Shown here piece after piece: positions 20,671 to 53,878 of a stretch of 53,899 bases of DNA (its first letter is position 1; each line of letters opens with the position of its first letter). The DNA comes from Syntrophaceae bacterium (GTDB lineage: Bacteria; Desulfobacterota; Desulfomonilia; Desulfomonilales; Desulfomonilaceae): positions 1 to 53,899 of the forward strand of contig JARLHM010000055.1 of the NCBI GenBank assembly GCA_031292235.1, in the 5' to 3' direction. The translations under genes were made by a program, and so were the position numbers. The notes beneath the pieces were generated by a model. That model was not told where the DNA came from, did no database searches, and was given only the letters and a program-made list of their open reading frames with translations.

Positions 20671-20961
20671 GTGACGCTGTTCGGACGAGAATATAGTGTT
20701 CGGGGCCGTGGGTCCGGAGACTATATCGAGAGGCTTGTAGAGTTTATCAATTCCCGATCCGAAGAGATCAGGGGAAAATCAGGAGTTGTGACCACAATTG
20801 ATCTCGCGATTCTCACGTTGCTCAACATCACGGATGAGCTTTTTGAATGTAGACAGTCGATTTCAGAACAAATCGAGAAAACGGAGGAAGAAGATTACGG
20901 TCTCTTAAAACCCGGTGATTTGGGAGAGACTGATTTAAAAATTCCCCTGCGCGGTTCGTGA
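20671..20961 (+). CDS. zapA: cell division protein ZapA (start probably upstream at CTG 20599)
   Basis: TLFGREYSVRG...YIERLVEFINSRSEEI...TIDLAILTLLNITDELF matches the ZapA pattern. In-frame upstream codons (..RSVKV) look like part of the protein, but no ATG/GTG/TTG is present there. Confidence 0.8.
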   Translation: MTLFGREYSVRGRGSGDYIERLVEFINSRSEEIRGKSGVVTTIDLAILTLLNITDELFECRQSISEQIEKTEEEDYGLLKPGDLGETDLKIPLRGS

Positions 20962-20997
20962 GGGATAGAGAATTTTTGAGCCAACACTCGAAAATTG

Positions 20998-21202
20998 GGA
21001 ACTGAACCCGATTGTGGTGTGCAAGCCTACCGTTGAAGTAGGAAGCCTGAAACAACCGCTAGGATCCCACCTGGGAAACCAGGTTCAAAAGTTCTATTGC
21101 CACGGCCGACTGCGGGGGATAAAAACAACGTAGATTGCATTTTGCTTTACACCCTACAACCGGGATGTGCTACGAAGCCTCTGGATGGCAGTTCAGGGTT
21201 CC
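20998..21202 (+). ncRNA. ssrS: candidate structured ncRNA, possibly 6S RNA (ssrS)
   Basis: It lies in a 359-nt non-coding gap directly downstream of zapA, which is the classical ssrS position. By-eye closing helices: 20998-21007 with 21191-21202, 21008-20 with 21149-63, and 21021-35 with 21126-38. Internal GNRA hairpin at 21070-83. Ends are not defined. Confidence 0.35.
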
Positions 21203-37625: not shown

Positions 37626-37763
37626 GTGGAACAAACCCTTACAAAATTTGTTAGTAAACTTGAGCGATCTTCATTAACTAGTGTTCGTGAAACCGGTTTC
37701 TTGTTTTACTGGTGGCGCCATTCAACCGTGACGGTGTGGTCCGCCCTGGATTGCTCAGTTTAA
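37626..37763 (+). CDS. trpL: putative trp leader peptide (45 aa, tandem Trp codons)
   Basis: GTG start with AAGGAG 13 nt upstream. Peptide ..GFLFYWWRHSTVTVWSALDCSV, with UGG UGG at 37710-15 and a third UGG at 37737. It overlaps alternative hairpins and is followed by the terminator. Alternative TTG start at 37701. Confidence 0.55.
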   Translation: MEQTLTKFVSKLERSSLTSVRETGFLFYWWRHSTVTVWSALDCSV

Positions 37764-37841: not shown

Positions 37842-39230
37842 GTGGCCTCGCTCAAAACCCTGTCGAAGGAATTACTGGCGGACATGGAGACGCCTGTTTC
37901 AAGCTATTTGAAACTGTGCACAGGCGAAGATGTTTCATTTCTCTTCGAAAGCAGCGAAGACGTTGAGAGCATAGGTCGTTATTCGATTATAGCCTGGGAC
38001 CCTCTGTTGTCTATAACACTTTCGGATGAAGGGACCAAAATCCAATCACACGGAGAGGTTTCATTAAGCTCTAAAGACGATTTTTTCACATCTGTGCGCA
38101 ACCTGATGGCTAGTATGGAGTGTGTCGATTCTCCCAAACTTCCATTTGTAGGATCGCTAGCTGGTTATGTTGGTTATGACGCCATAAGACTGATCGAAAA
38201 ACTTCCCAAGCCACTCCCTGGTAATCTGCCAACTGCTTACCTCTGCTATCCCTCTCAATTCGTGGTTTTCGATCACTTGTACAGGACAATCACGATATGC
38301 GCCATTGGAGAAAATGATACAGATTGCAGTGATAAACTACGCGGAATAGAATCAAAACTTGCCCGGAACTTAACCACTAGTGTTGGTAATGAGAAATTCT
38401 CCCTTGTGCGGCCTTCTCAGGAACGATTTGTCAATTCGGTTCTGAAGGCAAAGGAACACATACTCGACGGAGATATATTTCAGGTTGTTCTTTCCGATCA
38501 AATCATGGGGGAAATCAATGTCGACCCATTTGAGGTCTATCGATGGATGAGGGTGAACAGCCCATCCCCTTACATGTTTTTTTTGAAGCTCGGAGATCTG
38601 AAACTTGCGGGGGCTTCTCCCGAAACACTAGTCAAACTTATAAACGGCAAGGTATTGATAAGACCAATAGCGGGCACAAGGGGGCGTTCAGCGGACCCCA
38701 TAAAGGATAAAGCGCTTGAAAAGGAACTAATGGAATCGGAAAAGGAACGCGCCGAGCATGTCATGTTGGTTGACTTGGCAAGGAATGACGCCGGTCGTGT
38801 TTGCCGATATGGCTCTGTAACCGTTGACCCTTACATGATAGTTGAGCGCTATAGTCATGTAATGCACATTGTCTCCCAGGTTACAGGAGATTTACGCGAG
38901 GGTTTGGACGCATGGGACGCGTTTATAGCCGGTTTTCCTGCGGGCACGGTTTCCGGGGCGCCCAAAATTCGCGCGATGGAAATTATTGATGACCTTGAAA
39001 CCGAACCACGGGGGCCCTACGGAGGGGCCGTCGGCTACTGGGGACCAGGTCTAACGATGGACACCTGTATTGCAATACGGATGATCCAGTTTTATCAAAA
39101 CAAATTTGTTTTGCAGGCCGGCGCTGGGATTGTCGCTGATTCGTCCCCTGTTTTCGAATACGAGGAGATAATGAGAAAAGCGGCGCATGGAATAGCTTCT
39201 CTTCGAGCAGCCATGGGAGACATGTCATGA
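37842..39230 (+). CDS. trpE: anthranilate synthase component I
   Basis: 462 aa with LVDLARNDAGRV and GAVGYW motifs. GTG start 7 nt after AAAGGAA. Confidence 0.95.
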   Translation: MASLKTLSKELLADMETPVSSYLKLCTGEDVSFLFESSEDVESIGRYSIIAWDPLLSITLSDEGTKIQSHGEVSLSSKDDFFTSVRNLMASMECVDSPKLPFVGSLAGYVGYDAIRLIEKLPKPLPGNLPTAYLCYPSQFVVFDHLYRTITICAIGENDTDCSDKLRGIESKLARNLTTSVGNEKFSLVRPSQERFVNSVLKAKEHILDGDIFQVVLSDQIMGEINVDPFEVYRWMRVNSPSPYMFFLKLGDLKLAGASPETLVKLINGKVLIRPIAGTRGRSADPIKDKALEKELMESEKERAEHVMLVDLARNDAGRVCRYGSVTVDPYMIVERYSHVMHIVSQVTGDLREGLDAWDAFIAGFPAGTVSGAPKIRAMEIIDDLETEPRGPYGGAVGYWGPGLTMDTCIAIRMIQFYQNKFVLQAGAGIVADSSPVFEYEEIMRKAAHGIASLRAAMGDMS

Positions 39231-39814
39231 TACTTGTAATCGACAATTATGATTCATTCACGTTTAACGTTGTCCATGCGCTCGGAAAATTGGGAAAGCA
39301 AATTGAAGTTGTTCGTAATGATGAGATTACCGTCGATCAAATTGCCGATATAAGTCCCGAAGCGATCATAATATCTCCAGGTCCCGGTCGGCCTGAAGAC
39401 TCCGGGATTACATGCCCAACTATTACGAAGTACGCCGGTAAAATTCCAATACTGGGTGTCTGTCTTGGTCACCAGGCGATAGGTCAGGTTTTCGGAGCGA
39501 CGATTACGCGGGCCTTGCGGCCGGTTCACGGCAAAGTTACAGATATATTTCATGATTCTAAAGGGCTGTTCCGAGGCTTGCCGAATCCATTTCCTGCCGC
39601 CCGATATCACTCTTTGATTGTGCTTAAGGAAACTGTGGCGCCGCCACTTACAGTTACAGCCCAAACCTCCGAAGGAGAAGTAATGGGTCTGCGAAGTTCG
39701 GAACTCAAACTCGAAGGGGTTCAATTTCACCCTGAATCAATAGCTACGGCCCAGGGAATGGACCTCTTCAGAAACTTTCTCGACATTTATGTGGTTAAGG
39801 AAAACCAGCGATGA
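39227..39814 (+). CDS. trpG: anthranilate synthase component II (glutamine amidotransferase)
   Basis: ILVIDNYDSFTFN, GVCLGHQ, HPES triad. 4-nt overlap with trpE. Confidence 0.95.
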   Translation: MILVIDNYDSFTFNVVHALGKLGKQIEVVRNDEITVDQIADISPEAIIISPGPGRPEDSGITCPTITKYAGKIPILGVCLGHQAIGQVFGATITRALRPVHGKVTDIFHDSKGLFRGLPNPFPAARYHSLIVLKETVAPPLTVTAQTSEGEVMGLRSSELKLEGVQFHPESIATAQGMDLFRNFLDIYVVKENQR

Positions 39815-41064
39815 GGCTTTCAGGGACGTTCAAACCACCAGGTGACAAATCGATATCCCATCGCATTGCCCTATTGTCGCTGTTGGCTAAGGGGGAATGT
39901 GTTGTTTCGAATTATTCCACAGCTCAAGACTGTATGACGTCTGTACATGCCGTGAACGCGCTTGGAGGAGGAGCTGTTTTCTCAGGAGAGGACCTGAATC
40001 TGTCAGCTAATGGTCGTATCTTGACAGACTCAGTGGATGTTGATTGCGGCAATTCCGGCACAACCATGAGATTACTGATGGGGGTCCTCGCCGGAGCTTC
40101 AGGTCGATTCATTCTTTGGGGAGATGATTCTCTGATGAAACGGCCCATGGAACGTGTGGCAAAACCGCTGCGCAGTATGGGCGCAAATATTTTTTGCGCT
40201 CCAAATGGAACACCACCTGTTAACATAGAGGGCTCAAAATTGTGCGGGATTGATTACAGATTACCGGTGGCGAGCGCCCAGTTGAAAAGCGCTGTTTTGA
40301 TCGCCGGTGTTCAAGCTGAAGGTCTGACGAGGATTACTGAGCCTGTAAAAAGTCGAGACCACACTGAACACATGCTGGGAATGTTCGGAGCTGACATCTA
40401 TTTTGAATCCGGGGCATGGTGTGTTCGAAAATCGTTGATGGAACTCCCCTCAGCTTTCGGTGTTCCCGGAGATCCATCTTCCGCCGCGTTCTTCCTATGT
40501 GGAGCGGCGATGCTTGATGGAAGTGAAGTTACAGCAGAAGGGATCCTGCTGAATCCGACCAGAGTAAAATTTCTTGACAAGCTCAAAGAGATGGGCGCGC
40601 AAACTGAGATCCACATTAAGGGGGATTCTCCCGAACCATGGGGAAGCGTCAAGTCTAGTCATTCAGGAAAACTTTCGTCGTGTAAAGTGACATCTGAAGA
40701 ACTACCACTGCTTGTTGATGAAGTTCCCATATTGGCGCTGCTGGCTACTCAAGCGCACGGCGTTTCAGTTTTTCACGAAATTGGGGAACTGAGAATCAAG
40801 GAATCCGACCGTGTCGCCGCCCTAGTTTCAGAATTGGGTAAACTGGGCGCTAAGCTTGAGATTGATGGTCCAAATCTCCTAATTTATGGACCAACGAAAT
40901 TTAAGGCGACTGATGGATTGGAAAGCTTTGGCGACCACCGAATAGCAATGACCTTAGCCATAGCCCGTGGGCTGACTGATGAGAATGTCCCAATCCGTGA
41001 CATGTCTTGCGTTTCAATTTCATATCCGGATTTTTTCGAAACTTTGAGGGAATTGACTCTATGA
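39811..41064 (+). CDS. aroA: 3-phosphoshikimate 1-carboxyvinyltransferase (EPSP synthase)
   Basis: PGDKSISHR, CGNSGTTMRLL, KESDR, HRIAM. Confidence 0.95.
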   Translation: MRLSGTFKPPGDKSISHRIALLSLLAKGECVVSNYSTAQDCMTSVHAVNALGGGAVFSGEDLNLSANGRILTDSVDVDCGNSGTTMRLLMGVLAGASGRFILWGDDSLMKRPMERVAKPLRSMGANIFCAPNGTPPVNIEGSKLCGIDYRLPVASAQLKSAVLIAGVQAEGLTRITEPVKSRDHTEHMLGMFGADIYFESGAWCVRKSLMELPSAFGVPGDPSSAAFFLCGAAMLDGSEVTAEGILLNPTRVKFLDKLKEMGAQTEIHIKGDSPEPWGSVKSSHSGKLSSCKVTSEELPLLVDEVPILALLATQAHGVSVFHEIGELRIKESDRVAALVSELGKLGAKLEIDGPNLLIYGPTKFKATDGLESFGDHRIAMTLAIARGLTDENVPIRDMSCVSISYPDFFETLRELTL

Positions 41065-41882
41065 AAGTTTACTGTGTGATTGGAGACCAGCGGGTTGAAA
41101 GGTCTCTTTCGCCAATTATGCATAATTCAGTTTTTTCAGTATATGGCATGAACTGTAAGTATGTTGCGTTCAGAATAGAACCTGCCGATCTGGAAAACGC
41201 CGTTTTGGGAATAAGAGCTTTGAATATTTCAGGAGTTAACGTTACTGTCCCTCATAAGGAAATCATCATTCCGTTTCTTGATGGGCTTTCGGATCGTGCC
41301 CGGGCCATCGGCGCGGTTAATACAATAGTTCGTGATGGGCCAACCCTGATAGGTCACAATACCGACGCAGGAGGGTTTGGAGACTTGCTCGACAAATACA
41401 GGGTTTCTCCCAATAATTCGGATGTGGTGATATTAGGGGCGGGTGGCGCCACGAGAGCAGTGCTTCGTTCTTTCATCGAGCGTGGCTATGAAAAGGTTAG
41501 TGTAATCAACAGAACGTACAAAAAGAGCTTAGATCTGACGGCTAAACTGGGCGGCTTGGCAATCCCTCCGGAAAATACTACGGAAGCTCTGCGAAAAGCC
41601 ACTCTGCTGATAAACACAACAAGCGTGTCAGAGGTGGCCGAAGGTCCATCTTTCATGGAAATCTTCTCCAATGAGGCTCGGCTCGATAAACTTAGGTTGG
41701 TCATAGATATAAACTACGGGCGTAAAACCAATTTTTGGGCCTCCCTGGCGGAGAATAGCGGAGCCGGCTTTACTGATGGTTTATATATGTTGGCCGCGCA
41801 GGCTAGACGGAGTTTCCGTTTGTGGACAGGAGAAGAGCCGGCAATCGAAAATTTTCTTGATCCTATAGGTTTAGTTGAATGA
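41061..41882 (+). CDS. aroE: shikimate dehydrogenase
   Basis: SLSPIMHN, NVTVPHK, GAGGATRAV. ATG 41061 overlaps the aroA stop (ATGA). The tracked ORF starts 54 nt earlier, inside aroA. Confidence 0.92.
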   Translation: MKVYCVIGDQRVERSLSPIMHNSVFSVYGMNCKYVAFRIEPADLENAVLGIRALNISGVNVTVPHKEIIIPFLDGLSDRARAIGAVNTIVRDGPTLIGHNTDAGGFGDLLDKYRVSPNNSDVVILGAGGATRAVLRSFIERGYEKVSVINRTYKKSLDLTAKLGGLAIPPENTTEALRKATLLINTTSVSEVAEGPSFMEIFSNEARLDKLRLVIDINYGRKTNFWASLAENSGAGFTDGLYMLAAQARRSFRLWTGEEPAIENFLDPIGLVE

Positions 41883-43447
41883 TGGACAATATATACATTA
41901 CCGGTTTCATGGGAGCGGGTAAATCTACGATAGGTAAGGCCCTGTCTAAAATCTTGAAGCGGGGCTTTGTCGACATGGACGAGGCGATCTCAAGAAAGAG
42001 CGGAATGTCAGTCAGGGCCTATTTTGAAGAATTGGGGGAGAATAATTTCCGTGAAGCTGAAACAAAATTACTCCAGAAGATTGCGTCAGGAAAATCGCTG
42101 GTTGTATCCACTGGAGGCGGCGCGCCAACTAGAGTCATGAATCGAAAGATTATGCGTGACTCCGGTAAGATTGTTCACCTTAACGCAACACTGGATGAAT
42201 GTTTGAGCCGCCTGGGCGTTGAAACAGATTCGGTGCGGCCATTGTGGAAGGATCGGGCCTCAGTTTCAGCGCTATACAATAGCCGTCTCGAAGCATATGC
42301 TGATTGTGACATTAAAGTTGACGCTTTGAACAGGTCGGCTGAGGAATTGGCGTGGGAAATTTGCGAAAAACTTCAACCGCGACGATCAATTGACGTTCAA
42401 CTAGGCGGAGTGAGTCATCCTCTGGTTTTTGCATGGAGGTCCCAGGAAGAAGTCTCCATGTTTTCAAAGCCTTCCAAAACATTCGTAGTAACCGATAAAC
42501 ATTTATCCAGATTGCATATGGAGCGTTACTCGAGCGCGCTGGGTGACGCTACTGTAGTGGCCCTGAAAGCGGGAGAGCGCAGCAAATCGCTTGGTAGCGC
42601 CAGACGTCTGTACGAAGCAATGTTAAAGGATCGACTTGGTAGAGATGGTCTTGTGGTGGCGATTGGTGGTGGTGTTATTACTGATTTAGGCGCGTTCGTG
42701 GCTTCAACTTACAAACGAGGTGTCCCGTTTATTTTAGTTTCAACCTCTCTCGTGGGTTGTGTTGACGCTGCAATCGGAGGTAAAGCCGCTGTTGACCTGA
42801 ATGAGGTAAAAAACCCGGTAGGTTGTTTCGCTGCTCCCTCTGCGGTATTCCTGGATCTCAGGGCCCTGAGCACTCTGCCTGGAAAATGTGTTTCAGAGGG
42901 CCTGGTCGAGGCTTACAAAACTGGACTTGTAGCTGATCCATCCCTTGCGGAGTTGATAGAAAGCAATATTGACTCACTTCTACGAGCAGACCTGCTCACT
43001 TTGGCCGAGGTCGTCCGTTTGTCCGCTTCAGCGAAAGCGGACATTGTAGGAAAGGATTTCAAGGAAAGTGGCCTTAGGCGTATTCTGAACTTTGGCCACA
43101 CTTACGGCCATGCTGTCGAGAGCTTCAACAACTATCGATTGAGCCACGGAGTATCTGTCGCTTTAGGAATGATGGTGGCGGTGGTTATTTCTGAAAACCG
43201 GGGCTTGTTGAGACAGAAACTGTCGATCGGGATTCAGACAACATTGAGAAATTTCGTTCAAAGCCCCACTGTTATGCCTTCCGTCAATGAAGCCTGGCGA
43301 ATCATGATGAATGATAAAAAGAACCGTAACGGGCGAGTAACCTTTGTATTGCTTGCGGAACTCGGTTCTCCCATCTGTGTGGATGATCTGCGGCCGGAAG
43401 AACTAGATGCCGCCATTCGAAGTGTGGAAGGTTTGAAAAATGGGTAG
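41879..43447 (+). CDS. aroKB: bifunctional shikimate kinase / 3-dehydroquinate synthase fusion
   Basis: N-terminal GFMGAGKSTIG (AroK, about 170 aa). C-terminal GGGVITDLGAFVASTYKRGVPFILVSTSL...GHTYGHAVE (AroB). Confidence 0.92.
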   Translation: MMDNIYITGFMGAGKSTIGKALSKILKRGFVDMDEAISRKSGMSVRAYFEELGENNFREAETKLLQKIASGKSLVVSTGGGAPTRVMNRKIMRDSGKIVHLNATLDECLSRLGVETDSVRPLWKDRASVSALYNSRLEAYADCDIKVDALNRSAEELAWEICEKLQPRRSIDVQLGGVSHPLVFAWRSQEEVSMFSKPSKTFVVTDKHLSRLHMERYSSALGDATVVALKAGERSKSLGSARRLYEAMLKDRLGRDGLVVAIGGGVITDLGAFVASTYKRGVPFILVSTSLVGCVDAAIGGKAAVDLNEVKNPVGCFAAPSAVFLDLRALSTLPGKCVSEGLVEAYKTGLVADPSLAELIESNIDSLLRADLLTLAEVVRLSASAKADIVGKDFKESGLRRILNFGHTYGHAVESFNNYRLSHGVSVALGMMVAVVISENRGLLRQKLSIGIQTTLRNFVQSPTVMPSVNEAWRIMMNDKKNRNGRVTFVLLAELGSPICVDDLRPEELDAAIRSVEGLKNG

Positions 43448-44501
43448 TATCTATGGCCGATTCTTTCGCTTGTCAACATTCGGCGAATCTCATGGTCCTG
43501 CTGTAGGTGTCGTCGTAGAAGGGGTCCCAGCCGGGCTGGCGTTAACCTCGGAAATCATCCAGTCAGAACTGGATAAACGCAAACCCGGTTCCAGTCAGTA
43601 TGTCTCACAGCGTTCAGAATCGGATACGGTAGAAATTCTTTCCGGTGTGGCAAATGGGAAGACGCTCGGATCTCCCGTGGCAATGCTGGTCAGGAACACT
43701 AACCAGCGATCCAAGGATTATTCAGCCATCGCGGACCTTTTCCGCCCTGGTCATGCGGATTACACGTATTTCAGGAAATATCTAACTGCTCCGCAGCCGG
43801 GTGGAGGTCGATCATCAGGTCGGGAAACAGTAGGTCGGGTTGCTGCTGGGGCTATAGCTAAAGTCATGCTTAGGCAGGTTGGTTTGCATGTAAACGCTTA
43901 TACAGTAAAGATCGGAGGGATAGTCGCTCATAATGTGGATATTGATTTTGCTCTTACTAATCCATTGAGGTGCGCGGACCCGGGTGTTGCTGAAGCAATG
44001 GGAAACGAGGTTAAATTGGCTGTTTCCGAAGGCGATTCGATAGGTGGGATAATTGAGGTCACGGCCGAAGGTGTGCCCCCGGGGCTCGGGGACCCTGTTT
44101 TCGATAAACTTGACGCCTCACTGGCCGCCGCGTTGCTTTCAATAGGTGGAGTAAAGGGTTTAGAGTTTGGTGAAGGGTTCCGTTCCGCTGGTTTGAGAGG
44201 GTCTCAGCACAACGACGGGATGACTTCAGCCGGTTTTTTGTCCAATCACTCTGGCGGCATCCTGGGTGGGATCTCTACCGGACAATCTATAATAATGAGG
44301 TTAGCCATAAAACCCACGGCGTCTATTTCTATTGAGCAGAAAACAATAGACTTGAAGGGTCAGGACCGACTGATCTCCGTCAAAGGAAGACACGACCCCT
44401 GTCTGTGCCCGAGGATTGCGCCAGTCGCTGAGGCGATGACAGCAATAACGCTTGCGGACGCGTGGCTTGCGGACAGGGCCGTTAGAGGAATAAGCGAATG
44501 A
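43440..44501 (+). CDS. aroC: chorismate synthase
   Basis: [34 protein letters not shown]. Confidence 0.95.
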
Positions 44502-44944
44502 AATTATTTGTGGTAAATGGGCCGAACCTGAACATGCTCGGTAAGCGGGAACCGGAATTGTATGGGTCCAAGACCCTGTCGGAAATAGAAAATGACCTTG
44601 TCGAACTTGGCGCCGAGTTGGGTTTCAAAATTGAATGTTTTCAATCAAACTTTGAAGGTGAAATAGTTTCGATCATTCAATCTGCCGGGACCCTGGCTTG
44701 TGGAGTGATTCTAAACGCGGGCGCGTACACTCACACAAGTATTGCAATCCGCGACGCTGTCTTGTGTTGCTCTGTTCCGGTAGTGGAGGTTCACCTCACC
44801 AACCCTCATGGCCGAGAGTTATTTCGCAGGAGATCGCTACTATCGGACGTTTGCAGGGGAGTAATAGCAGGTTTTGGGTGGCGTTCATACTGCTTGGCGC
44901 TAATGTGGTTTGCAAACTATCGCAGTGATCCCGGGCTGTTATAG
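44498..44944 (+). CDS. aroQ: type II 3-dehydroquinate dehydratase
   Basis: VVNGPNLNMLGKREPELYG, NAGAYTHTSIAIRDA, EVHLTN. Confidence 0.95.
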   Translation: MKLFVVNGPNLNMLGKREPELYGSKTLSEIENDLVELGAELGFKIECFQSNFEGEIVSIIQSAGTLACGVILNAGAYTHTSIAIRDAVLCCSVPVVEVHLTNPHGRELFRRRSLLSDVCRGVIAGFGWRSYCLALMWFANYRSDPGLL

Positions 44945-44972
44945 AATCATGTTCAGTGCGCTTAATAAAATG

Positions 44973-45001
44973 TTGACAATGTTTTCACGCTGCTGTAGAA
45001 A
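44973..45001 (+). promoter_or_regulatory. candidate promoter for the aromatic leader / aroF-pheA-tyrA unit
   Basis: TTGACA (44973-78), 17-nt spacer, TAGAAA (44996-45001). About 20 nt before the leader SD. Confidence 0.4.
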
Positions 45002-45032
45002 TAGACTATAGCATAAAGCAAGGAAACGGTTC

Positions 45033-45149
45033 ATGGGTTCACAATTTAATAATCTCGCAAAAGTTGATGGCCAGATCGAAAACGGGGCATACTTTTATTT
45101 TTGGCGATTTTATTATTTCGTCTGTCTACCCGTGTCCGGAGGGCTATAA
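45033..45149 (+). CDS. putative aromatic-amino-acid leader peptide (38 aa)
   Basis: AAGGA 8 nt before the ATG. Peptide MGSQFNNLAKVDGQIENGAYFYFWRFYYFVCLPVSGGL. 9 of 10 consecutive codons (45090-45119) are Tyr, Phe or Trp. Followed by alternative helices and two terminators. Confidence 0.7.
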   Translation: MGSQFNNLAKVDGQIENGAYFYFWRFYYFVCLPVSGGL

Positions 45150-45178
45150 AGAGTAACAGAATTTAGACGGAAAGCAAC

Positions 45179-45225
45179 AAGGCCATGGGTAGACAGCGAA
45201 AGCGCCCATGGCCTTTATTATTTTT
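45179..45225 (+). terminator. attenuator hairpin 1 / terminator T1
   Basis: AAGGCCAUGGG (45179-89) pairs with CCCAUGGCCUU (45205-15). The 15-nt loop contains a GAAA mini-hairpin. Followed by UAUUAUUUUU. Confidence 0.7.
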
Positions 45226-45268
45226 GGGCCTTGGGCGTAAAAAAAACCCCCAAGGCCCTTTTCGTTTC
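45226..45268 (+). terminator. attenuator terminator T2
   Basis: GGGCCUUGGG (45226-35) pairs with CCCAAGGCCC (45249-58), A-rich loop, then UUUUCGUUU. 18 nt before the aroF ATG. Confidence 0.75.
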
Positions 45269-45285
45269 CGAAAGGAGCGTTTCAG

Positions 45286-46179
45286 ATGATTAAATCTCGC
45301 GCCAGCGTGTCCAGAGTAGAAGACCCAGTTTCGCCGTCAACGATGGAGCTTAAAAGACCGCCTACCAGGAAAGGGTTCATAAGTCGTGACTATCAACGGG
45401 AAGATACGGTAGTTAGGGTGGGTGAGGCCATTATAGGTGGAGGTTCATTTGCGGTAATAGCCGGGCCGTGCTCTGTAGAATCCCTGCAGCAACTTGTGGA
45501 TACCGCATTCGCCGTCAAAGAAGCAGGGGCTGTCGTGTTGCGGGGTGGGGCTTTCAAACCCAGAACCAGCCCTTATAGTTTTCAAGGATTGGGCGAGGAA
45601 GGTCTGAAGCTGCTGTCGTTAGCCCGGGAAGTGACTGGAATGCCGGTAGTTACTGAAGTTATGGATACTGCGGATGTGGCGCTTGTCGAAGATTATGCTG
45701 ATATGCTACAGATCGGCGCTCGTAATATTCAGAATTTTTCTCTCCTCAAAAAAGTTGGAAAGTGTCAAAAGCCGATCATTCTTAAAAGGGGATTGATGTC
45801 AACCATCGATGAGTTGCTATCATCCGCGGAGTATATTCTCGCGGCGGGAAACTCACAGGTCATTCTATGCGAAAGAGGGATACGGACTTTTGAAACGGCG
45901 ACCAGGAACACTCTCGATCTTAGCGCTGTTTGTGTCCTCAAAGAACGAACCCATTTGCCCGTGATTGTAGATCCGAGCCACGCTGTAGGTGTGAGACGTT
46001 TCGTTCAACCGTTGTCTCGGGCAGCGATGGCCGTGGGGGCTGACGGAATTATGGTCGAAGTTCATTGTTCCCCTGAAACCGCTCTATGTGACGGTGAACA
46101 ATCTCTACGACCTGAGGATTTTTGTAACCTCATGAAAAACCTGGCGATCATTGGCGAGGCCATGAGCCTTTTGGTTTGA
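45286..46179 (+). CDS. aroF: 3-deoxy-7-phosphoheptulonate (DAHP) synthase, type I-beta
   Basis: [41 protein letters not shown] 8 nt upstream of the ATG. Confidence 0.92.
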
Positions 46180-46214
46180 AATGTTTTGAGAAGCAAAATC
46201 AGAAAGAGGCCCTG

Positions 46215-47360
46215 ATGCGGTTATCTGAAACACTTAGAATTGATGAGGCCCAAGGTAATACCAACCCCACCGGGATAGCCTCGATTCAAGGAATAAGAGA
46301 ACAAATTGATAATATCGACAAGGAATTATTACGACTAGTTAATCAGAGAGCTTTTCACGCGTTGAGCATCGCGGAATTGAGAAATTCAGCCAATATAACT
46401 AATTTCTCCCCTGAACGTGAACTCACGATAATTAAGTCTCTGTGTGATGCGAACGCCGGCCCGTTGTCAAAATCTTCTGTAGCCAATGTGTTTTCCGAAA
46501 TAATTTCAGCCTGCCGCAGCGCCAAACGTCCATTGAGGGTGGCCTTTCTAGGGCCTGAGGGGACGTTCAGTCACCTGGCGGCGTTACGACGATTTGGCAA
46601 TTCGGCGCTTTATCTTCCCGAAGTTTCGATTGATGACGTCTTTGACGCAGTTGAAAAAGGAGCGGCGGATGTCGGGATCACACCGGTGGAAAATTCTTCA
46701 GAAGGCGCTGTTAGCGCAACCATGGATCAGTTTATAGATTCCAATTTGTTGATCTGCGGGGAAATCTTCTCAAGAATACGACATGTGCTCATGTCGACGG
46801 AATCCTCGTTGGACAACATTTCCGTGGTTTATTCTCACCCGCAGGCCCTCAATCAATGTCGCAACTGGTTACGAGTGAATTTGCCCGCGGCTTCTCTGAT
46901 GCCGGAATCAAGTACCGCAGAGTCCGCGCGTATTGCGCTTGCCAGGCCCGGGGCAGCGGCAATAGGTAACGAGGTTACAGCCACACAGCATAACCTGAAA
47001 ATCCTTGCCTCGGACATACAGGATAGCCTTAGTAACACTACACGATTCCTGCTGTTGGGGAAAAACAGAAGCGCTCCGACTGGTCTGGACAGGACATCTC
47101 TAGTTTTCGCCGCCGCTCATATCCCTGGTTCACTTCATAAGGCGCTTGAGCATTTTGCGAAGAGATCTGTAAACCTCACTCGAATTGAATCCCGTCCCAT
47201 GAAAAACAAAAACTGGGAGTATTTTTTCTTCGTGGATATCGAAGGTCATCAGGAATCGCCAATGGTCAAAGAAGCGATTGAAAGCCTACGTTCTGACGTG
47301 GAATTTCTGAAACTTCTTGGTTCCTATCCAATAGGCGATATCGATTCATCAAATTTGTAG
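46215..47360 (+). CDS. pheA: bifunctional chorismate mutase / prephenate dehydratase (P-protein)
   Basis: CM domain (IRE QIDNIDKELLRLVNQR), PDT domain (VAFLGPEGTFSH), ACT domain (TRIESRP). ATG 46215 lies 5 nt after AAGAGG. The ORF is also open from TTG 46176, overlapping the aroF stop. Confidence 0.92.
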   Translation: MRLSETLRIDEAQGNTNPTGIASIQGIREQIDNIDKELLRLVNQRAFHALSIAELRNSANITNFSPERELTIIKSLCDANAGPLSKSSVANVFSEIISACRSAKRPLRVAFLGPEGTFSHLAALRRFGNSALYLPEVSIDDVFDAVEKGAADVGITPVENSSEGAVSATMDQFIDSNLLICGEIFSRIRHVLMSTESSLDNISVVYSHPQALNQCRNWLRVNLPAASLMPESSTAESARIALARPGAAAIGNEVTATQHNLKILASDIQDSLSNTTRFLLLGKNRSAPTGLDRTSLVFAAAHIPGSLHKALEHFAKRSVNLTRIESRPMKNKNWEYFFFVDIEGHQESPMVKEAIESLRSDVEFLKLLGSYPIGDIDSSNL

Positions 47361-47389
47361 AGAGCGAGAGAAAGTATACGGTAAAGATA

Positions 47390-48253
47390 GTGAGCGACAC
47401 AGACTTTAGGAAAGCTAATGTTTGCATAGTAGGCGGAAAGGGTCGTATGGGCCGCTGGTTTGTATCGCTATTTCGTGAAGCCGGCATGGATACGATCGTC
47501 TCGGATTTAGATGATTCTCCAATTTCTGAAAAGTCTGTGGCTTCGTGTGACATTGTCCTTTTGGCGGTCCCGGTGACAGCGATCGAAGGTGTAATGAGAT
47601 CAATAGGACCGTTTATAAGATCCGACGCTCTGCTAATGGACATATCCTCTATTAAGCGAGACCCTATAAATTTTATGCTCAAATATTCACAGAGCGAAGT
47701 CATAGGAACGCACCCTTTGTTCGGCCCATCCACGGCTTCTCTTGTAGATCAGGTGGTGTTTCTTTGCCCGTCACGAACCGAGAGATGGATAAAACCCTTT
47801 AGAAATTTTCTGGAAGAGCGGGGCGCAAAGATTACCGAAATCACCCCTGATGGGCACGACAAACTCATGGCGTGTTTCCAAACCTTGAGACATGTCATGC
47901 TTACGTCTTTGGGGCAGACATTGATAAGATTGGGTTTCGACTCACATTGTCAGGTTGAGGGTACAGGGGCGTGGTTTGAGCAACTGCTGGCAATGATGTG
48001 TCATCAGTTCGAACAGCCTTCAGAACTTTATGCTGATCTTGCTATTGGAAACTCCTATTCGTCTGAGACACTGAAACTGTTCCGCAACAGTTTAAACGAA
48101 CTAGCTAATCTTGTTTCTACAGGAAACAGAGATGGACTTGTTAGCGCCATGGATGAAGTGGCTCAATTCTGCGCGACCGAAGCAACATCAAATGGTTCCG
48201 CATGGGGTTGGTGGCGCGACATAGGAGGAGATTCCCGGCACATCGAGGTCTGA
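47390..48253 (+). CDS. tyrA: prephenate dehydrogenase, with Trp-rich C-terminal tail
   Basis: GTG start. VCIVGGKGRMGRWF NAD motif, GTHPLFGP, and a helical dimerisation domain. The tail is ..SAWGWWRDIGGDSRHIEV. Confidence 0.9.
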   Translation: MSDTDFRKANVCIVGGKGRMGRWFVSLFREAGMDTIVSDLDDSPISEKSVASCDIVLLAVPVTAIEGVMRSIGPFIRSDALLMDISSIKRDPINFMLKYSQSEVIGTHPLFGPSTASLVDQVVFLCPSRTERWIKPFRNFLEERGAKITEITPDGHDKLMACFQTLRHVMLTSLGQTLIRLGFDSHCQVEGTGAWFEQLLAMMCHQFEQPSELYADLAIGNSYSSETLKLFRNSLNELANLVSTGNRDGLVSAMDEVAQFCATEATSNGSAWGWWRDIGGDSRHIEV

Positions 48254-48280
48254 TTAAGCCCTTAAGACAACAGACAACAA

Positions 48281-48328
48281 AAGGCCGTGAATCTCAAAGC
48301 CGAGAGGATTCACGGCCTTTTCTTTTTT
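48281..48328 (+). terminator. intrinsic terminator between tyrA and trpD (attenuator)
   Basis: AAGGCCGUGAAUC (48281-93) pairs with GAUUCACGGCCUU (48307-19), 13 bp, followed by UUCUUUUUU. 28 nt after the tyrA stop and 25 nt before the trpD ATG. Confidence 0.85.
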
Positions 48329-48352
48329 AACGAATAGGATTTGGAGGAAACC

Positions 48353-49390
48353 ATGATTAAGGATTCAATAGAAAAAGCGGTTTCAGGAAATGACATCTCC
48401 GAAGCCCAGATGATGGAGACCATGGAAGAGATAATGGAAGGCCGCGCAACTCAAGCTCAGATCGGCGCCCTCCTGATAGCCTTGAGGATGAAAGGCGAGA
48501 CAGTTGAAGAAATTACTGCCGCTGCAAAAGTGATGAGATCCAAGAGTTCTCACATACCTTACAAATGCGAGGAAGGAGAAATTCTCATCGACACATGCGG
48601 TACTGGAGGCGATTGCTCCAACACCTTTAATGTTTCAACTACTGCGGCGTTTGTGGTTGCAGGCGCTGGAGTAAAGGTCGCTAAACACGGCAATCGGTCC
48701 GTCTCAAGCAAATGCGGCAGCGCGGACTTGATGGAAGCCCTGGGATTGCCGTTGGACCTTTCCCCAGAGCAAGTCGCCTTGTGCATACGGCAAGTAGGTA
48801 TCGGTTTCCTGTTCGCTCCCCTTTTACACACCGCCATGAAATACGCTATCGGTCCCAGACGCGAGTTGGGGCTTCGGACGATATTCAACCTTTTGGGACC
48901 GTTAACTAATCCTGCCGGAGCGCAGGTTCAGTTGATGGGGGTATACGATAATCAGATGGTCAAACCTTTAACTCATGTGATAGCAAGACTTGGGGCCAAA
49001 AAGGCCTTTGTCGTTCATGGTCACGGCGGACTGGATGAAATCAGCCTTAGTGGGCCAACGCTAGTTGGATTGGCCGAGAATGGCGAAGTTTCATTCAGAT
49101 ATATGGAACCATCGGATTTTGGGTTGAAAGGTAATGCTTCGGTAGCAATCGGTGGTGGAAACGCGCAGGAGAACGCTGCCATTACCAAATCTGTGCTAAA
49201 CGGAGATTCGGGACCGTATAGAGATGTGGTTCTCTTGAATGCAGCCGCCGCTTTGGTGGCGGCTGATCGAGGCAAGACCCTCATGGAGGGGATGGCTTTG
49301 TCAACTTTTTCAATTGATTCAGGCGCCGCGTTGAACAAATTGGACGAACTGATCAAATTCGCTAAGTCTCTGAAAGATGGAGGACACTAA
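48353..49390 (+). CDS. trpD: anthranilate phosphoribosyltransferase
   Basis: DTCGTGGD, KHGNRSVSS, NLLGPLTNP. ATG 48353 follows GGAGGAAACC. The tracked ORF starts at TTG 48341, inside the SD. Confidence 0.95.
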   Translation: MIKDSIEKAVSGNDISEAQMMETMEEIMEGRATQAQIGALLIALRMKGETVEEITAAAKVMRSKSSHIPYKCEEGEILIDTCGTGGDCSNTFNVSTTAAFVVAGAGVKVAKHGNRSVSSKCGSADLMEALGLPLDLSPEQVALCIRQVGIGFLFAPLLHTAMKYAIGPRRELGLRTIFNLLGPLTNPAGAQVQLMGVYDNQMVKPLTHVIARLGAKKAFVVHGHGGLDEISLSGPTLVGLAENGEVSFRYMEPSDFGLKGNASVAIGGGNAQENAAITKSVLNGDSGPYRDVVLLNAAAALVAADRGKTLMEGMALSTFSIDSGAALNKLDELIKFAKSLKDGGH

Positions 49391-50192
49391 TTTGCTAGCC
49401 TCAACACACGATTTTTTTCTGACGGTAATTGAGAACAAGAAACGGGAAGTTGAAAAGCTCAAAGAGATTGGGATGACAATGCTGGGAATGCTTGCCGAGG
49501 GAGCGCCTAAGCCCCTAGATTTCCTTGAAAGACTTCGGAGTGATAGATCAGTTCCAATTATTGCGGAAATAAAGAAATCAGCGCCATCCTGGAATGGTCT
49601 TCGAAAAAATGTTGATATTGAAAGTTTCGCCAAAGCGTACCAGTATAATGGCGCCGCAGCCATATCCGTCCTTACCGATTCTCCATTCTTTGGGGGCTCT
49701 ATTGATGATTTAACCGCAGTTCGTTATCAGGTCATTCTTCCGCTACTGAGAAAGGATTTCATCATAGGCGCCGAACAGTTATACGAATCGAGGGCGGCGC
49801 AGGCTGACGCTGTATTGCTCATAGTGGCGGTCCTGGATGACCATGAACTCTCGCGACTCTATAAGACCGCCTTAACCTTGGGTATGACCCCACTTCTTGA
49901 AGTACACGATGAGCATGAAGCGCAAAGGGCGCTCAAGCTTGATCCACGTTTAATCGGAATCAACAACCGCAATTTGAAAACACTGGAGGTAGACCTCGGG
50001 GTCTCAGAGCGACTCAGAAAGATGATTCCTGAGCACGTCATCGTTATCGCGGAGAGCGGCGTAGGGACTGTGGCTGATGTCCAAAGACTCCTGGCCGCTG
50101 GAGTCAATGGGTTCCTTATCGGAACGGCCTTGATGAAGTCCTCTGATCCAGGAAAGACGCTGAATTCATTTGTTAGCGTTGGGAGGGCATGA
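49377..50192 (+). CDS. trpC: indole-3-glycerol-phosphate synthase
   Basis: IIAEIKKSAPS, LRKDFI, GINNRNL, ESG. Confidence 0.93.
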   Translation: MEDTNLLASTHDFFLTVIENKKREVEKLKEIGMTMLGMLAEGAPKPLDFLERLRSDRSVPIIAEIKKSAPSWNGLRKNVDIESFAKAYQYNGAAAISVLTDSPFFGGSIDDLTAVRYQVILPLLRKDFIIGAEQLYESRAAQADAVLLIVAVLDDHELSRLYKTALTLGMTPLLEVHDEHEAQRALKLDPRLIGINNRNLKTLEVDLGVSERLRKMIPEHVIVIAESGVGTVADVQRLLAAGVNGFLIGTALMKSSDPGKTLNSFVSVGRA

Positions 50193-50809
50193 TGGTTCGT
50201 GTCAAGATTTGTGGGATTACCAGCTCGGAAGACGCTTCTATTGCCGCCGCAATGGGGGCCGACGCCCTAGGTTTTGTATTCGCGCCTAGCCCGAGGCAGG
50301 TTTCATTGGACAAGGCGTTTGGAATTTCACGTTCTTTACCTCCCTTTGTTCAGACAGTCGGGGTCTTTGTTGACGCTGATATTGAGGAAGTAATTTTTTT
50401 TAGAAATCATTTACGATTGGATCTTGTTCAGTTAAGTGGATCAGAGACCGACGCCTACATTCGCGCGTTGGGATCACGGGTAATCAAGACGGTCCATGTA
50501 AAAAATGGATTCAAACCAGAACCCAATATTCACGCCGAAGCTACCATCCTTCTGGATACCGCCGCAGACGGATTGAAGGGTGGAACAGGCAAGGCTTTTG
50601 ATTGGGACCTCGCTGCTGACGTGGCGGTTAAGCGACCTATAATTCTAGCTGGCGGGTTAACGCCGGAAAATGTGGCGATAGCCGTTAAGAAAGTTCAACC
50701 TTATGCGGTAGACGTTTCCAGTGGAGTAGAAATAGAACCAGGCAGGAAAGACCATGACAAAATCAGGAACTTTATACAAAGAGCAAAAACAGCAGGTTTC
50801 AGCGCCTGA
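50189..50809 (+). CDS. trpF: phosphoribosylanthranilate isomerase
   Basis: [33 protein letters not shown]. Confidence 0.93.
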
Positions 50810-52052
50810 TCAAAACGGTTACTTCGGCAGATTCGGGGGCCGTTTTGTTCCAGAAACACTTATGCCTGCGTTAGAAAAGCTATCAGAAACGTACAATCGA
50901 GTAAAAAATGACCCACCATTTGCGACTGAGCTAAAGGATCTTCTCAAGGATTACGCCGGGCGTGAGACCCCTTTGTATTATGCGCGGCGACTTTCTGAAA
51001 AACTTGGAGGCGCTAGGATTTTTCTGAAACGTGAGGACTTGACGCACACGGGCGCACACAAGATCAATAACGCTCTTGGACAAGTATTGCTAGCTGCCAG
51101 GATGGGTAAGACCCGGATAATTGCGGAAACCGGGGCAGGACAGCATGGTGTCGCTACAGCAACCGCCGCAGCGCTCATGGGACTGGAATGTGTTGTCTAT
51201 ATGGGCAGTCTCGACATTGTACGGCAGGCCCTAAATGTAACTCGTATGAAAATGTTGGGCGCGCAGGTTGTGCCGGTAAATGATGGTAGTTGTTCTCTCA
51301 AAGACGCTGTCAACGCCGCAATCCGTGATTGGGTTACAAATGTCGCTAACACGCACTACATAATCGGATCGGTAATAGGGCCTCATCCATATCCAATGAT
51401 TGTTCGGGATTTTCAGTGCGTGATTGGGAAAGAGGCGAGGAAACAGATGCTCGAACAGGCCAAGAAACTGCCCGATGTCGCAATCGCGTGTGTAGGGGCG
51501 GGCAGTAACGCTATTGGGCTTTTCCACGCTTTTCTGGGTGATCCCGTTCGTTTAATTGGGGTTGAAGCCGCGGGATACGGTCTGGATACTGGGCGTCATG
51601 CGGCCAGCCTGTGCGCCGGTAGTCCCGGGGTCCTTCACGGAGCGCTCCTTTACCTGTTGCAGGACGAAAACGGGCAAATCACTGAGGCCCATTCTATAGC
51701 CGCGGGATTGGACTACCCTGGAGTAGGGCCGGAACATGGAATGCTCAAAGATATCGAACGAGTCACATATGTTGCAGTCACCGATCAGGAAGCTGTTCAG
51801 GGTTTCATGGAGCTTGCGGGCATTGAGGGGATAATACCAGCGCTCGAAAGCGCTCACGCAATCGCCTACCTCAAGAAATTCGCAGGGACCATGTCCAAAG
51901 ATGACACCATCCTGGTATGTCTTTCCGGCCGCGGCGACAAGGATGTGGCCCAAGTGGCGGAATATCTTGATTCAAAAAGTGTTTCGGGTTCAGATGAAAA
52001 TGATTCGAAGAGCGCTAATTACTCTTCGACTTCGGCGGAGAATCAAAAATGA
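50754..52052 (+). CDS. trpB: tryptophan synthase beta chain
   Basis: [22 protein letters not shown] (PLP Lys), [16 protein letters not shown]. 56-nt overlap with trpF. Ser/Asp-rich tail of about 30 aa. Confidence 0.95.
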
Positions 52053-52852
52053 CTTCTAAAATAACCTCGCAATTTGAAAAGGCGGCCATGCAAAATCGAG
52101 CGGCCTATGTTCCGTTTATAATGGGAGGTTTTCCCAATGATGACACATTCATTCGATTATTAAAGGCCCTGGATGATTGCTCCGCAGATGTCATTGAGGT
52201 CGGGGTCCCGTTCTCTGATCCGCTCGCCGATGGACCTACGATACAAAAAGCTGGGAAAATTGCTCTGGATAATGGCTCCAGCCTTAGAAAGATTCTGGGA
52301 ACACTCGGTGAGGTAAGCGTCGATATCCACGCGCCAATTGTTCTGATGACATATTGGAACCCCATTCTCAGGATGGGAGTAGACGAGTTTGGAGACAAGG
52401 CCAAAGCCGCAAACATTTCCGGTGTTATCATCCCTGATTTGCCACCGGAAGAAGCCGGATATTGGATAAAGGTCGCACGAGCGCACGAAATTGATACAAT
52501 CTTCATGGTTGCTCCCACCACGACTCCGAAAAGGCTTGAAACAATAGTGAATTTGTCAAAAGGATTCGTTTATTTGGTTTCCATGACTGGGGTCACAGGG
52601 AGCGCTCTAGTGGTAAGCGACGCATTGCTTAAAACAGTGGCCAACCTGAAAAGGTTAACATCAGTTCCTGTAGCGGTCGGTTTTGGGGTGTCGAATCCAG
52701 AGCAGGTGGCAGCGCTGTCAAATGTGGCCGACGGAGTGATAGTGGGCAGCGCCCTGATTAAAAAGTGTCTTGAAGCTGATGATGATGTAAGCGCAATTGA
52801 CGCTGTTTCGAGTTTGTCCCGTGGCATAATCGGCGCGTTAGGCAGGAATTAA
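52049..52852 (+). CDS. trpA: tryptophan synthase alpha chain
   Basis: [27 protein letters not shown]. Confidence 0.95.
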
Positions 52853-53803: not shown

Positions 53804-53878
53804 GCCGAGGTAGCTCAGTGGTAGAGCAGATGATTCGTAATCATCAGGCCGTGGGTTCAACTCCCATCCTCGGCTCCA
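53804..53878 (+). tRNA. tRNA-Thr (anticodon CGU), CCA encoded
   Basis: Cloverleaf folded by hand. Acceptor GCCGAGG/CCUCGGC, D arm GCUC-AGUGGUA-GAGC, anticodon arm GAUGA-UUCGUAA-UCAUC, 5-nt variable loop, T arm GUGGG-UUCAACU-CCCAU, discriminator U, then CCA. Confidence 0.93.

Follow-up and report, generated by a model that had tools for sequence, protein, structure and literature searches.

The subject of this analysis is a candidate transcription attenuator preceding aroF in a 53,899-nucleotide (nt) stretch of contig JARLHM010000055.1 from a Syntrophaceae bacterium. The whole stretch is referred to below as the window, and positions are those of the window. By Pfam, trpE, trpG, aroA, aroE, an aroK-aroB fusion, aroC and aroQ (37842-44944) are followed by a 340-nt spacer between aroQ and aroF, which contains the leader, and then by aroF, pheA, tyrA, trpD, trpC, trpF, trpB and trpA. 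The aroF product is a family I 3-deoxy-D-arabinoheptulosonate 7-phosphate (DAHP) synthase, and the pheA product carries chorismate mutase, prephenate dehydratase and ACT domains. The closest public genomes were metagenome-assembled genomes (MAGs) labelled Syntrophaceae, Desulfomonilaceae and Desulfomonile, with AroF 82-98% identical (the Desulfomonile clade); more distant relatives were Desulfarculus and Desulfarculaceae MAGs, with AroF 69-76% identical (the Desulfarculus clade).

An earlier reading of the letters alone (the original prediction) had placed a 38-codon open reading frame (ORF) in this spacer, with a Shine-Dalgarno (SD) sequence and a run of nine aromatic codons in ten, and all three were found where it had put them (Table 1). 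The leader is a short 5' ORF with its own start codon and SD, and its cluster of 9/10 Tyr/Phe/Trp codons matches the products of aroF-pheA-tyrA-trpDCFBA downstream. Ten residues with nine aromatics occurred once in a six-frame translation of the whole 53.9-kb window, and in 100 block shuffles of the window the maximum aromatic count was ≤7 per 10 residues. The start region AAGGAA-N-ATGGG is kept in both the Desulfomonile and the Desulfarculus clades. The -35 hexamer TTGACA of the promoter-like site was invariant across the aligned upstream regions of 13 Desulfomonile-clade loci. Desulfarculus-clade loci have TTGACA at equal distance, with TTTAGT or TTTACT as the -10, and in the upstream-region alignment TTGACA stands 17 nt ahead of a TAnAAn or TTTAGT hexamer in both clades. 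This conserved box agrees with the originally estimated transcription start site (TSS) near 45008. A consensus promoter scan made no plus-strand call at the aroF leader, owing to a -10 hexamer without the final T.

Table 1. Coordinates of the aroF leader, of the genes it precedes and of related sites in the window
Feature	Position	Strand	Remarks
Promoter-like site	44973..45001	+	-35 TTGACA 44973-78, 17-nt spacer, -10 TAGAAA 44996-45001; predicted TSS near 45008
Shine-Dalgarno of leader ORF	45020..45026	+	AAGGAAA, ~7 nt 5' of ATG
Leader ORF	45033..45149	+	38 codons plus UAA, predicted product MGSQFNNLAKVDGQIENGAYFYFWRFYYFVCLPVSGGL; stop codon at 45147
Regulatory codon run YFYFWRFYYF (putative)	45090..45119	+	4 Tyr, 4 Phe, 1 Trp
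Segment 1, antiterminator 5' arm	45116..45137 (core 45122-45134)	+	Inside leader ORF, directly 3' of aromatic run
SD-like GGAGG	45138..45142	+	Just 5' of leader stop codon; reads GGAGGGCUAUAA here
Possible weak decoy partner of 5' segment 1 (45121-28)	45164..45171	+	UAGACGGA; appears in constrained folds with segment 1 partly free
Segment 2	45179..45201	+	Partners: segment 1 (via 45181-45201) or segment 3 (via 45179-45190)
Segment 3	45202..45215	+	T1 3' arm (45204-15) or helix 3:4 5' arm (45202-13)
T1 U-rich tail UAUUAUUUUU	45216..45225	+	Doubles as loop of hairpin 3:4
Segment 4	45226..45238	+	T2 5' arm (45226-35) or helix 3:4 3' arm (45227-38)
Segment 5 and U tract	45249..45267	+	T2 3' arm 45249-58, then UUUUCGUUU 45259-67
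Regulated genes I (predicted; Pfam)	45286..52852	+	aroF 45286-46179, pheA 46176-47360, tyrA 47390-48253, trpD 48341-49390
Regulated genes II (predicted; Pfam)	within 45286..52852	+	trpC 49377-50192, trpF 50189-50809, trpB 50754-52052, trpA 52049-52852
tyrA-tail arm	48227-39		GGAGAUUCCCGGC, complementary to 5' arm of terminator preceding trpD
Strong terminator just before trpD	48283-93/48307-17		T run 48318-28
trpE-leader terminator	37790-98/37803-11		Then TTTTTT
Non-aroF module loci (metagenome)			L056, L064, L067-L070, L075, L080, L084, L087, L089, L093, L098, L107, L112

Folding of the 281-nt leader gave z = -4.5 against dinucleotide shuffles. The RNA downstream of the run is described here as five segments that pair in the alternatives 1:2, 2:3 (hairpin T1), 3:4 and 4:5 (hairpin T2). 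The positions originally given for 1:2, T1 and T2 were exact, by the minimum free energy (MFE) pair table and by the sequence. In the pair table 45122 pairs with 45196 and 45134 with 45184, and helix 1:2 is extended at 45116-20/45197-201 and 45136-37/45181-82. T1 (45179-89/45205-15) is a perfect stem of 11-12 base pairs (bp) with a loop of 13-15 nt, followed by UAUUAUUUUU; T2 (45226-35/45249-58) pairs fully over 10 bp, with UUUUCGUUU after it. Two putative intrinsic terminators, each a GC-rich stem with a U run, thus separate the leader ORF from aroF. Helix 1:2 and T1 are mutually exclusive, since both use 45181-90. Helix 3:4, proposed as 8 of 9 pairs, has that core (45205-13/45227-35) and proved longer, with 11 of 12 pairs at 45202-13/45227-38; the energy of the hairpin (-22.8 kcal/mol) is similar to that of T2, and shuffling segment 4 gave -9.1 +/- 2.9. 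At the decoy site listed in Table 1, TTTAGAC or TTTAGAT is conserved in the Desulfomonile clade.

Ribosome occupancy was represented by a 25-nt masked block shifted codon by codon along the transcript. An A site anywhere up to 45114 (the ninth codon of the ten) gave helix 1:2 a probability of 0.8-1.0 and T1 one of ~0, and an A site between 45117 and 45144 (from aromatic codon ten through the last sense codon) gave T1 a probability of 0.98. The mask scan therefore toggles between 1:2 and T1, as expected of a ribosome-dependent antiterminator that is exclusive with its terminator. When only the RNA downstream of the ribosome was folded, stalls on the first seven codons kept 1:2. This productive zone holds Tyr codons at positions 1 and 3, Phe codons at 2, 4 and 7 and the Trp codon at 5, so that each of the three amino acids is represented in it. 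The state energies were -50.3 kcal/mol for 1:2+3:4, -49.5 for 1:2+T2 and -41.1 for T1+T2, and the direct-path barriers were ~18 kcal/mol from the 3:4 state to the T2 state and ~20.6 kcal/mol from T1 back to 1:2. With barriers of this height, the hairpin formed first during transcription should persist for the relevant ~second; the near-equal energies of 1:2+3:4 and 1:2+T2, together with the ~18 kcal/mol barrier, mean that 3:4 can keep T2 open.

A small ORF with an aromatic run was found upstream of aroF in 27 genome loci from both clades (L001-L025, L050, L052), accompanied in these by segment 1 inside the leader ORF and by the T1 hairpin. Runs of the Desulfomonile type include YFYFWRFYYF, YYYFWQYYYF, YFYFWRYYYS and YYYFWRFYWF, those of the Desulfarculus type FFYFSFYYFT, FFYFYFYYFT and YFYFSFYWYS, and the consensus across loci is [YF][YF]YF[WSYG]x[FY]Y[YFW][FST]. 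The gene order aroQ / leader / aroF-pheA-tyrA-trpD-trpC is identical in both clades. No comparable leader was seen in the upstream regions of Lachnospiraceae and other distant AroF loci. Outside the run the peptide sequence is not conserved. Directly 3' of the run, GUCUG(U/C)CU(A/G)CCC is conserved in a reading frame that varies by locus (VCLP, SSVYP, AVCP, GSAR), and this retention of the segment 1 nucleotides across frame changes argues that selection acts on the RNA rather than on the peptide. The U-rich T1 tail is present in all Desulfomonile-clade loci, and 17 of 28 genome loci, like many metagenome loci, have a second hairpin with a T run at the T2 position. One Desulfarculus MAG (L024:3640-3930) has ~250 extra bases between T2 and aroF relative to its close relative L021, which may be an inserted element.

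Covariation was scored on two alignments, A1 (22 sequences; 1:2 and T1) and A2 (17 T2-bearing loci; T2 and 3:4). On A1, helix 1:2 was 82.6% paired with 8 pairs changed on both sides, among them U-A to C-G and G-C to A-U, and none of 500 shuffles reached its score; in slid controls pairing fell to 32-41%. T1 was 98.5% paired with 6 compensated pairs and is the RNAalifold consensus. On A2, T2 was 88% paired, with 10 cells changed on both sides. In most T2-bearing loci, shuffling segment 4 made the 3:4 hairpin much less stable, and in four loci this hairpin belonged to the MFE fold. In the Desulfarculus clade segment 4 retains an A that is bulged in T2 yet paired in 3:4.

A protector or pause helix of the trp 1:2 or his A:B type was not found: pairing of the regulatory codons or upstream RNA with segment 1 came to just 5 bp at 45082-86, which are not conserved, and the untranslated leader folds into 1:2. 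A predicted hairpin at 45047-66/45090-115, considered as a protector, was rejected as not conserved beyond the closest relatives. Desulfarculus-clade RNAs have only a short local hairpin, within segment 1. Since the search revealed no upstream partner for segment 1, RNA that is not translated is expected to adopt the read-through fold (default ON).

We read the leader, at a probability of roughly 0.8, as a ribosome-mediated leader-peptide transcription attenuator for aroF-pheA-tyrA-trpDCFBA that reports charged tRNA-Tyr and tRNA-Phe and, weakly, tRNA-Trp. From the folding and comparative patterns above we infer that the leader is translated, that ribosomes stall on it, that transcription terminates at T1 and T2, that 3:4 acts kinetically and that expression responds to amino-acid supply. 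Briefly, transcription would start from the dedicated promoter near 45008 and the 38-codon leader would be translated. In Tyr or Phe shortage a ribosome would stall in the ten-codon run, 5' of segment 1; segment 1 (45116-37) would then pair with newly made segment 2 and block T1, and the free segment 3 would pair with segment 4 and block T2, so that polymerase would enter aroF. With aromatics plentiful, the ribosome would cross segment 1 to the stop codon at 45147, segment 2 would pair with segment 3 to form T1 with its U-rich tail, and polymerase escaping T1 would meet T2. The implication is that both terminators are coupled to one sensor with the same polarity. A biosynthetic operon must be ON in starvation, and a stalled ribosome must hence sit 5' of segment 1, which is where the run lies. 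The two-state model of the original prediction is supported by the masked folding, which reproduces its states and polarity, by the compensatory changes in 1:2, T1 and T2, and by conservation in two divergent clades. Its caveat, that late stalls would cover segment 1 and leave the polarity unsettled, is real, and is largely resolved toward the proposed polarity.

Several results weigh against this reading, in whole or in part. A stall at the tenth aromatic codon already favours T1, and in downstream-only folding stalls from the eighth codon onward do so. A ribosome on the stop codon (mask 45132-56) leaves the 5' half of segment 1 exposed, with a probability of 0.71 for partial 1:2 and 0.07 for T1; with 1:2 partially re-forming behind such a ribosome, the OFF state needs T1 to form while segment 1 is occupied, or needs following ribosomes. 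At full-transcript equilibrium T2 is favoured in every state (0.76-0.99), which makes 3:4 at best a kinetic device. The covariation of helix 3:4 on A2 was not significant (76.8% paired, with 59 of 500 shuffles reaching its score), so that covariation backs 1:2, T1 and T2 and not 3:4. Helix 3:4 is weak in L015, and part of its complementarity could stem from T2 having arisen as a diverged copy of T1. In one relative (L012:3900-3960, AroF 89% identical) unrelated sequence replaces the 3' arm of T1, whereas 1:2 and T2 are intact, so that either T1 has decayed there or the assembly is faulty. Neither T1 nor T2 was called by a simple terminator scan, their 13-nt loops lying beyond its loop limit of 3-8 nt.

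Near the ends of the aroF leaders the nucleotides GGAGG are kept in both clades in differing frames (including L015-L024 and L045). At this place Desulfarculus aroF and Trp leaders read GGAGGUCUAG or GGAGGUCUGA, and Trp leaders there also end in GGAGGTCTGA/TAG. The GGAGG might hold a terminating ribosome over segment 1.

Metagenome contigs were scanned with the pattern GGCCATGGGYRGAC-N6-30-CCCATGGCC, giving 61 loci, ~44 of which had an aromatic-rich small ORF just upstream. About half of the metagenome module loci precede aroF. The RNA module, GGGUCUGCCC / GGCCAUGGGCAGAC / CCCAUGGCC, is strongly conserved in sequence across distant loci and before unrelated genes. Targets other than aroF were a PaaK-like AMP-ligase with a Liv-type ABC transporter, a 520-550-aa GNAT-domain protein, a family III CoA-transferase, an operon of aconitase, isocitrate dehydrogenase (IDH)-like and citrate-synthase-like genes, and an MBL-fold protein; these loci (Table 1) may form an aromatic-limitation regulon. 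Trp-containing runs recur in several lineages (YSYYWYWY, GYYWGFYFWY, FFAFSFWYGF).

Three architectures were distinguished. In the first, 2:3 carries a T run and the second hairpin is absent, which makes 2:3 necessarily the terminator there. In the second, 2:3 has no T run and is followed by GGGCCATGGG...CCCATGGCCC and a T run, and segment 3 is perfectly complementary to segment 4. In the third, as in the window, a T run follows both 2:3 and the second hairpin. Every architecture has a terminator that needs segment 1 kept off segment 2, and only a ribosome translating segment 1 can do this; members with T1 only, T2 only or both show equal polarity, as the cascade model needs. In the second architecture T2 is the sole terminator, and the leader consequently reaches it only via 3:4; these loci are strong indirect evidence that 3:4 functions. 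Two nested alternative hairpin pairs (1:2/2:3/3:4/4:5), the mark of a his-type cascade in which two switches separate sensor and terminator, were thus found, with 3:4 included through conserved complementarity and energetics.

In the his leader of Salmonella and E. coli (RF00514), pairing B:C with D:E gives read-through and C:D with E:F termination. By analogy, T2 could be the sole terminator here, 2:3 a mere anti-antiterminator like his C:D and the U-rich tail merely the loop of 3:4, which would leave a five-segment leader without two terminators. We consider this unlikely, though it has real support in L056, L064, L067, L070, L075, L088, L093, L098, L107 and L112, where 2:3 lacks a U tail and a T run follows the second hairpin only, and in the window itself, where the T1 tail is interrupted (UAUUAUUUUU) and the T1 loop measures 13-15 nt. 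Against it, T1 has a good T run and no second hairpin in L018, L022, L023, L025, L052, L057, L061-63, L072-74, L078 and L099. The stretch after 2:3 is not U-rich in the second architecture, from which it follows that a 3:4 loop needs no U richness; in the window this stretch is best read as a U tract, which points to a terminator, and post-T1 U richness is kept throughout the window's clade though the 3:4 loop does not require U.

The module GGGUCUGCCC / GGCCAUGGGCAGAC / CCCAUGGCC is conserved beyond what base pairing demands, also before unrelated genes, as might be expected if the small ORF were incidental and the hairpins were recognised by a trans-acting factor, whether an RNA-binding protein like TRAP or PyrR, a tRNA or a small molecule. 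This we regard as very unlikely: nearly every locus with the module also has an in-frame start, an SD and a dense aromatic run, whereas the peptide elsewhere and the frame across segment 1 vary; no riboswitch, T-box or protein-binding leader of Rfam matched at E ≤ 10 or at the gathering score; and no TRAP-like triplet repeats were seen by eye. Over 44000-46500, Rfam gave no known RNA family at E ≤ 10, including Phe_leader, Trp_leader, His_leader, Leu_leader and Thr_leader. That the ORF is a functional hydrophobic micro-protein and the hairpins ordinary terminators, for example ending the upstream trpE-aroQ unit, is hardly credible, for although the peptide is hydrophobic, T1 and T2 lie 3' of aroQ and the terminator scan shows no other terminator after aroQ, the peptide is unconserved outside the run, the nucleotides are conserved across frame changes, a conserved promoter lies between aroQ and the leader, and the exclusive helix 1:2 covaries, which plain terminators do not need.

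To return to the attenuator, joint sensing of Tyr, Phe and Trp as originally proposed is plausible for Tyr and Phe and weak for Trp, which has one codon, absent in the Desulfarculus clade. Apart from the Desulfomonile clade, only a few others carry the Trp codon. It does not track the downstream trp genes, which was ruled out as trpD-trpC follow tyrA in both clades; it tracks the absence of a free-standing Trp leader before trpD. In the Desulfarculus clade a spacer of 240-470 nt separates tyrA from trpD; it includes a promoter-like site of its own and either one or two free-standing leaders rich in Trp, and every such leader has a terminator. In the window's clade this spacer is just 88 nt, and Trp codons (WGWW) lie at the end of tyrA; these codons, the tyrA-tail arm and the terminator before trpD (Table 1) are conserved in the Desulfomonile clade. 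At its very end, tyrA has 17 codons (SAWGWWRDIGGDSRHIEV, then stop; Trp codons 48203-14) that resemble a Trp leader fused to the enzyme.

A third leader was noted before trpE (ORF 37626-37763, ...FLFYWWRHSTVTVW..., with the run FLFYWWRHS), with the same three-segment layout; inside its ORF, GTGACGGTGTGG (37728-39) is similar to the terminator's 3' arm (CCCACCGTC/GACGGTGGG being the terminator). This leader is conserved in L055, L097 and L062, and it had no match to Rfam Trp_leader. The order of codons, ORF-internal arm, stop and terminator recurs in the Trp leaders of the cluster. The window would thus hold a 15-gene aromatic supra-operon with three sensors: a WW leader ahead of trpE, the Tyr/Phe/Trp leader ahead of aroF, and WGWW in the tail of tyrA, ahead of trpD.

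A joint reading of these loci, which we hold tentatively and put at a little under even odds, is that of a modular default-ON chassis, composed of an ORF-internal arm GGGUCUGCCC, then GGCCAUGGGCAGAC and CCCAUGGCC, with an optional second GGCCAUGGG/CCCAUGGCC terminator. It would be reused, by lineages that are probably Thermodesulfobacteriota, with differing aromatic-rich leaders before aroF, the PaaK-like ligase and Liv-type transporter, the GNAT-domain genes and the aconitase-IDH-citrate synthase operons, as an aromatic-starvation regulon. A sensor of the same logic would lie in the last 17 codons of tyrA, where ribosomes finishing the enzyme would gate the terminator ahead of trpD. With the shared RNA module as a handle, one could search uncultured anaerobes for genes that respond to aromatic limitation, among them genes for proteins whose role is unknown.

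The principle is textbook attenuation, and the relay of 1:2/3:4 against 2:3/4:5 is the his relay without arm A. As in the his leader, there is a long consecutive run of regulatory codons and the ribosome position picks the fold, with B:C and D:E matching 1:2 and 3:4, and C:D and E:F matching 2:3 and 4:5. The his leader has an arm A, which bears the codons and pairs with B; no such arm was found here, and untranslated RNA is predicted to be ON rather than super-attenuated. Further differences are that in the window's clade the middle hairpin 2:3 has its own U tract and that the codons are Tyr/Phe/Trp; the his leader shows no sequence or Rfam similarity to the aroF leader. The pheL-pheA system of gamma-proteobacteria likewise places a Phe-rich leader before the gene for chorismate mutase/prephenate dehydratase, where it controls an intrinsic terminator (PMC3082878). 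However, the regulatory codons of pheL are exclusively Phe, its RNA has four classical segments with a single terminator, and pheA is its only target (PMC3082878), whereas the aroF leader has Tyr and Phe in equal number and one Trp, and precedes an operon running from DAHP synthase through tyrA to five trp genes.

Mixed Phe/Tyr leaders before DAHP synthase genes are known, and the topology of the cascade is that of the his leader, so that calling the element unusual had been an overstatement. According to summaries of the work on Corynebacterium glutamicum, the leader peptide aroR (Phe-Tyr-Phe) precedes aroF, and a ribosome-mediated response to Phe limitation was shown experimentally (PMC11802643, PMC7356990). 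aroR has three aromatic codons, compared with nine here, and belongs to an unrelated lineage and sequence; the same summaries describe no tandem terminator or five-segment cascade. In Acholeplasma, the computationally identified upstream ORF uORFC-13-1 before aroF has a conserved Phe beside an intrinsic terminator, and ribosome-mediated attenuation was proposed (PMC8632094). It differs in phylum, sequence and structure and has no link to pheA-tyrA-trp genes, and the proposal comes from computation alone (PMC8632094). A 2004 survey of delta-proteobacterial regulation makes no mention of aromatic attenuators (PMC545781), and the literature searched held no report of amino-acid attenuators in Desulfomonile- or Desulfarculus-like lineages, nor of relevant tandem-terminator leader attenuators.

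What is new is the family, with its spread over several uncultured sulfate-reducer lineages, the apparent absence of any protector arm, two serial terminators under one leader, and the dense, balanced Tyr/Phe codons, with Trp codons recurring in several lineages. The aroF leader would extend classical attenuation to Desulfomonile- and Desulfarculus-like bacteria. One leader acting on two serial terminators through a hairpin relay should cut basal leak and keep inducibility, an arrangement usable in synthetic circuits.

Elsewhere in the window, the Rfam matches at the gathering score were a 6S RNA gene (20941-21122, 115.7 bits) and a tRNA gene (53804-53875) only. Several Desulfarculus-type loci (L061, L062, L105) have a second aroF paralogue between trpG and aroA, and L023 has one directly upstream of aroA; the window is without such a paralogue. 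Within the upstream series of the window, a single 522-aa ORF (41879-43447) joins shikimate kinase to 3-dehydroquinate synthase.

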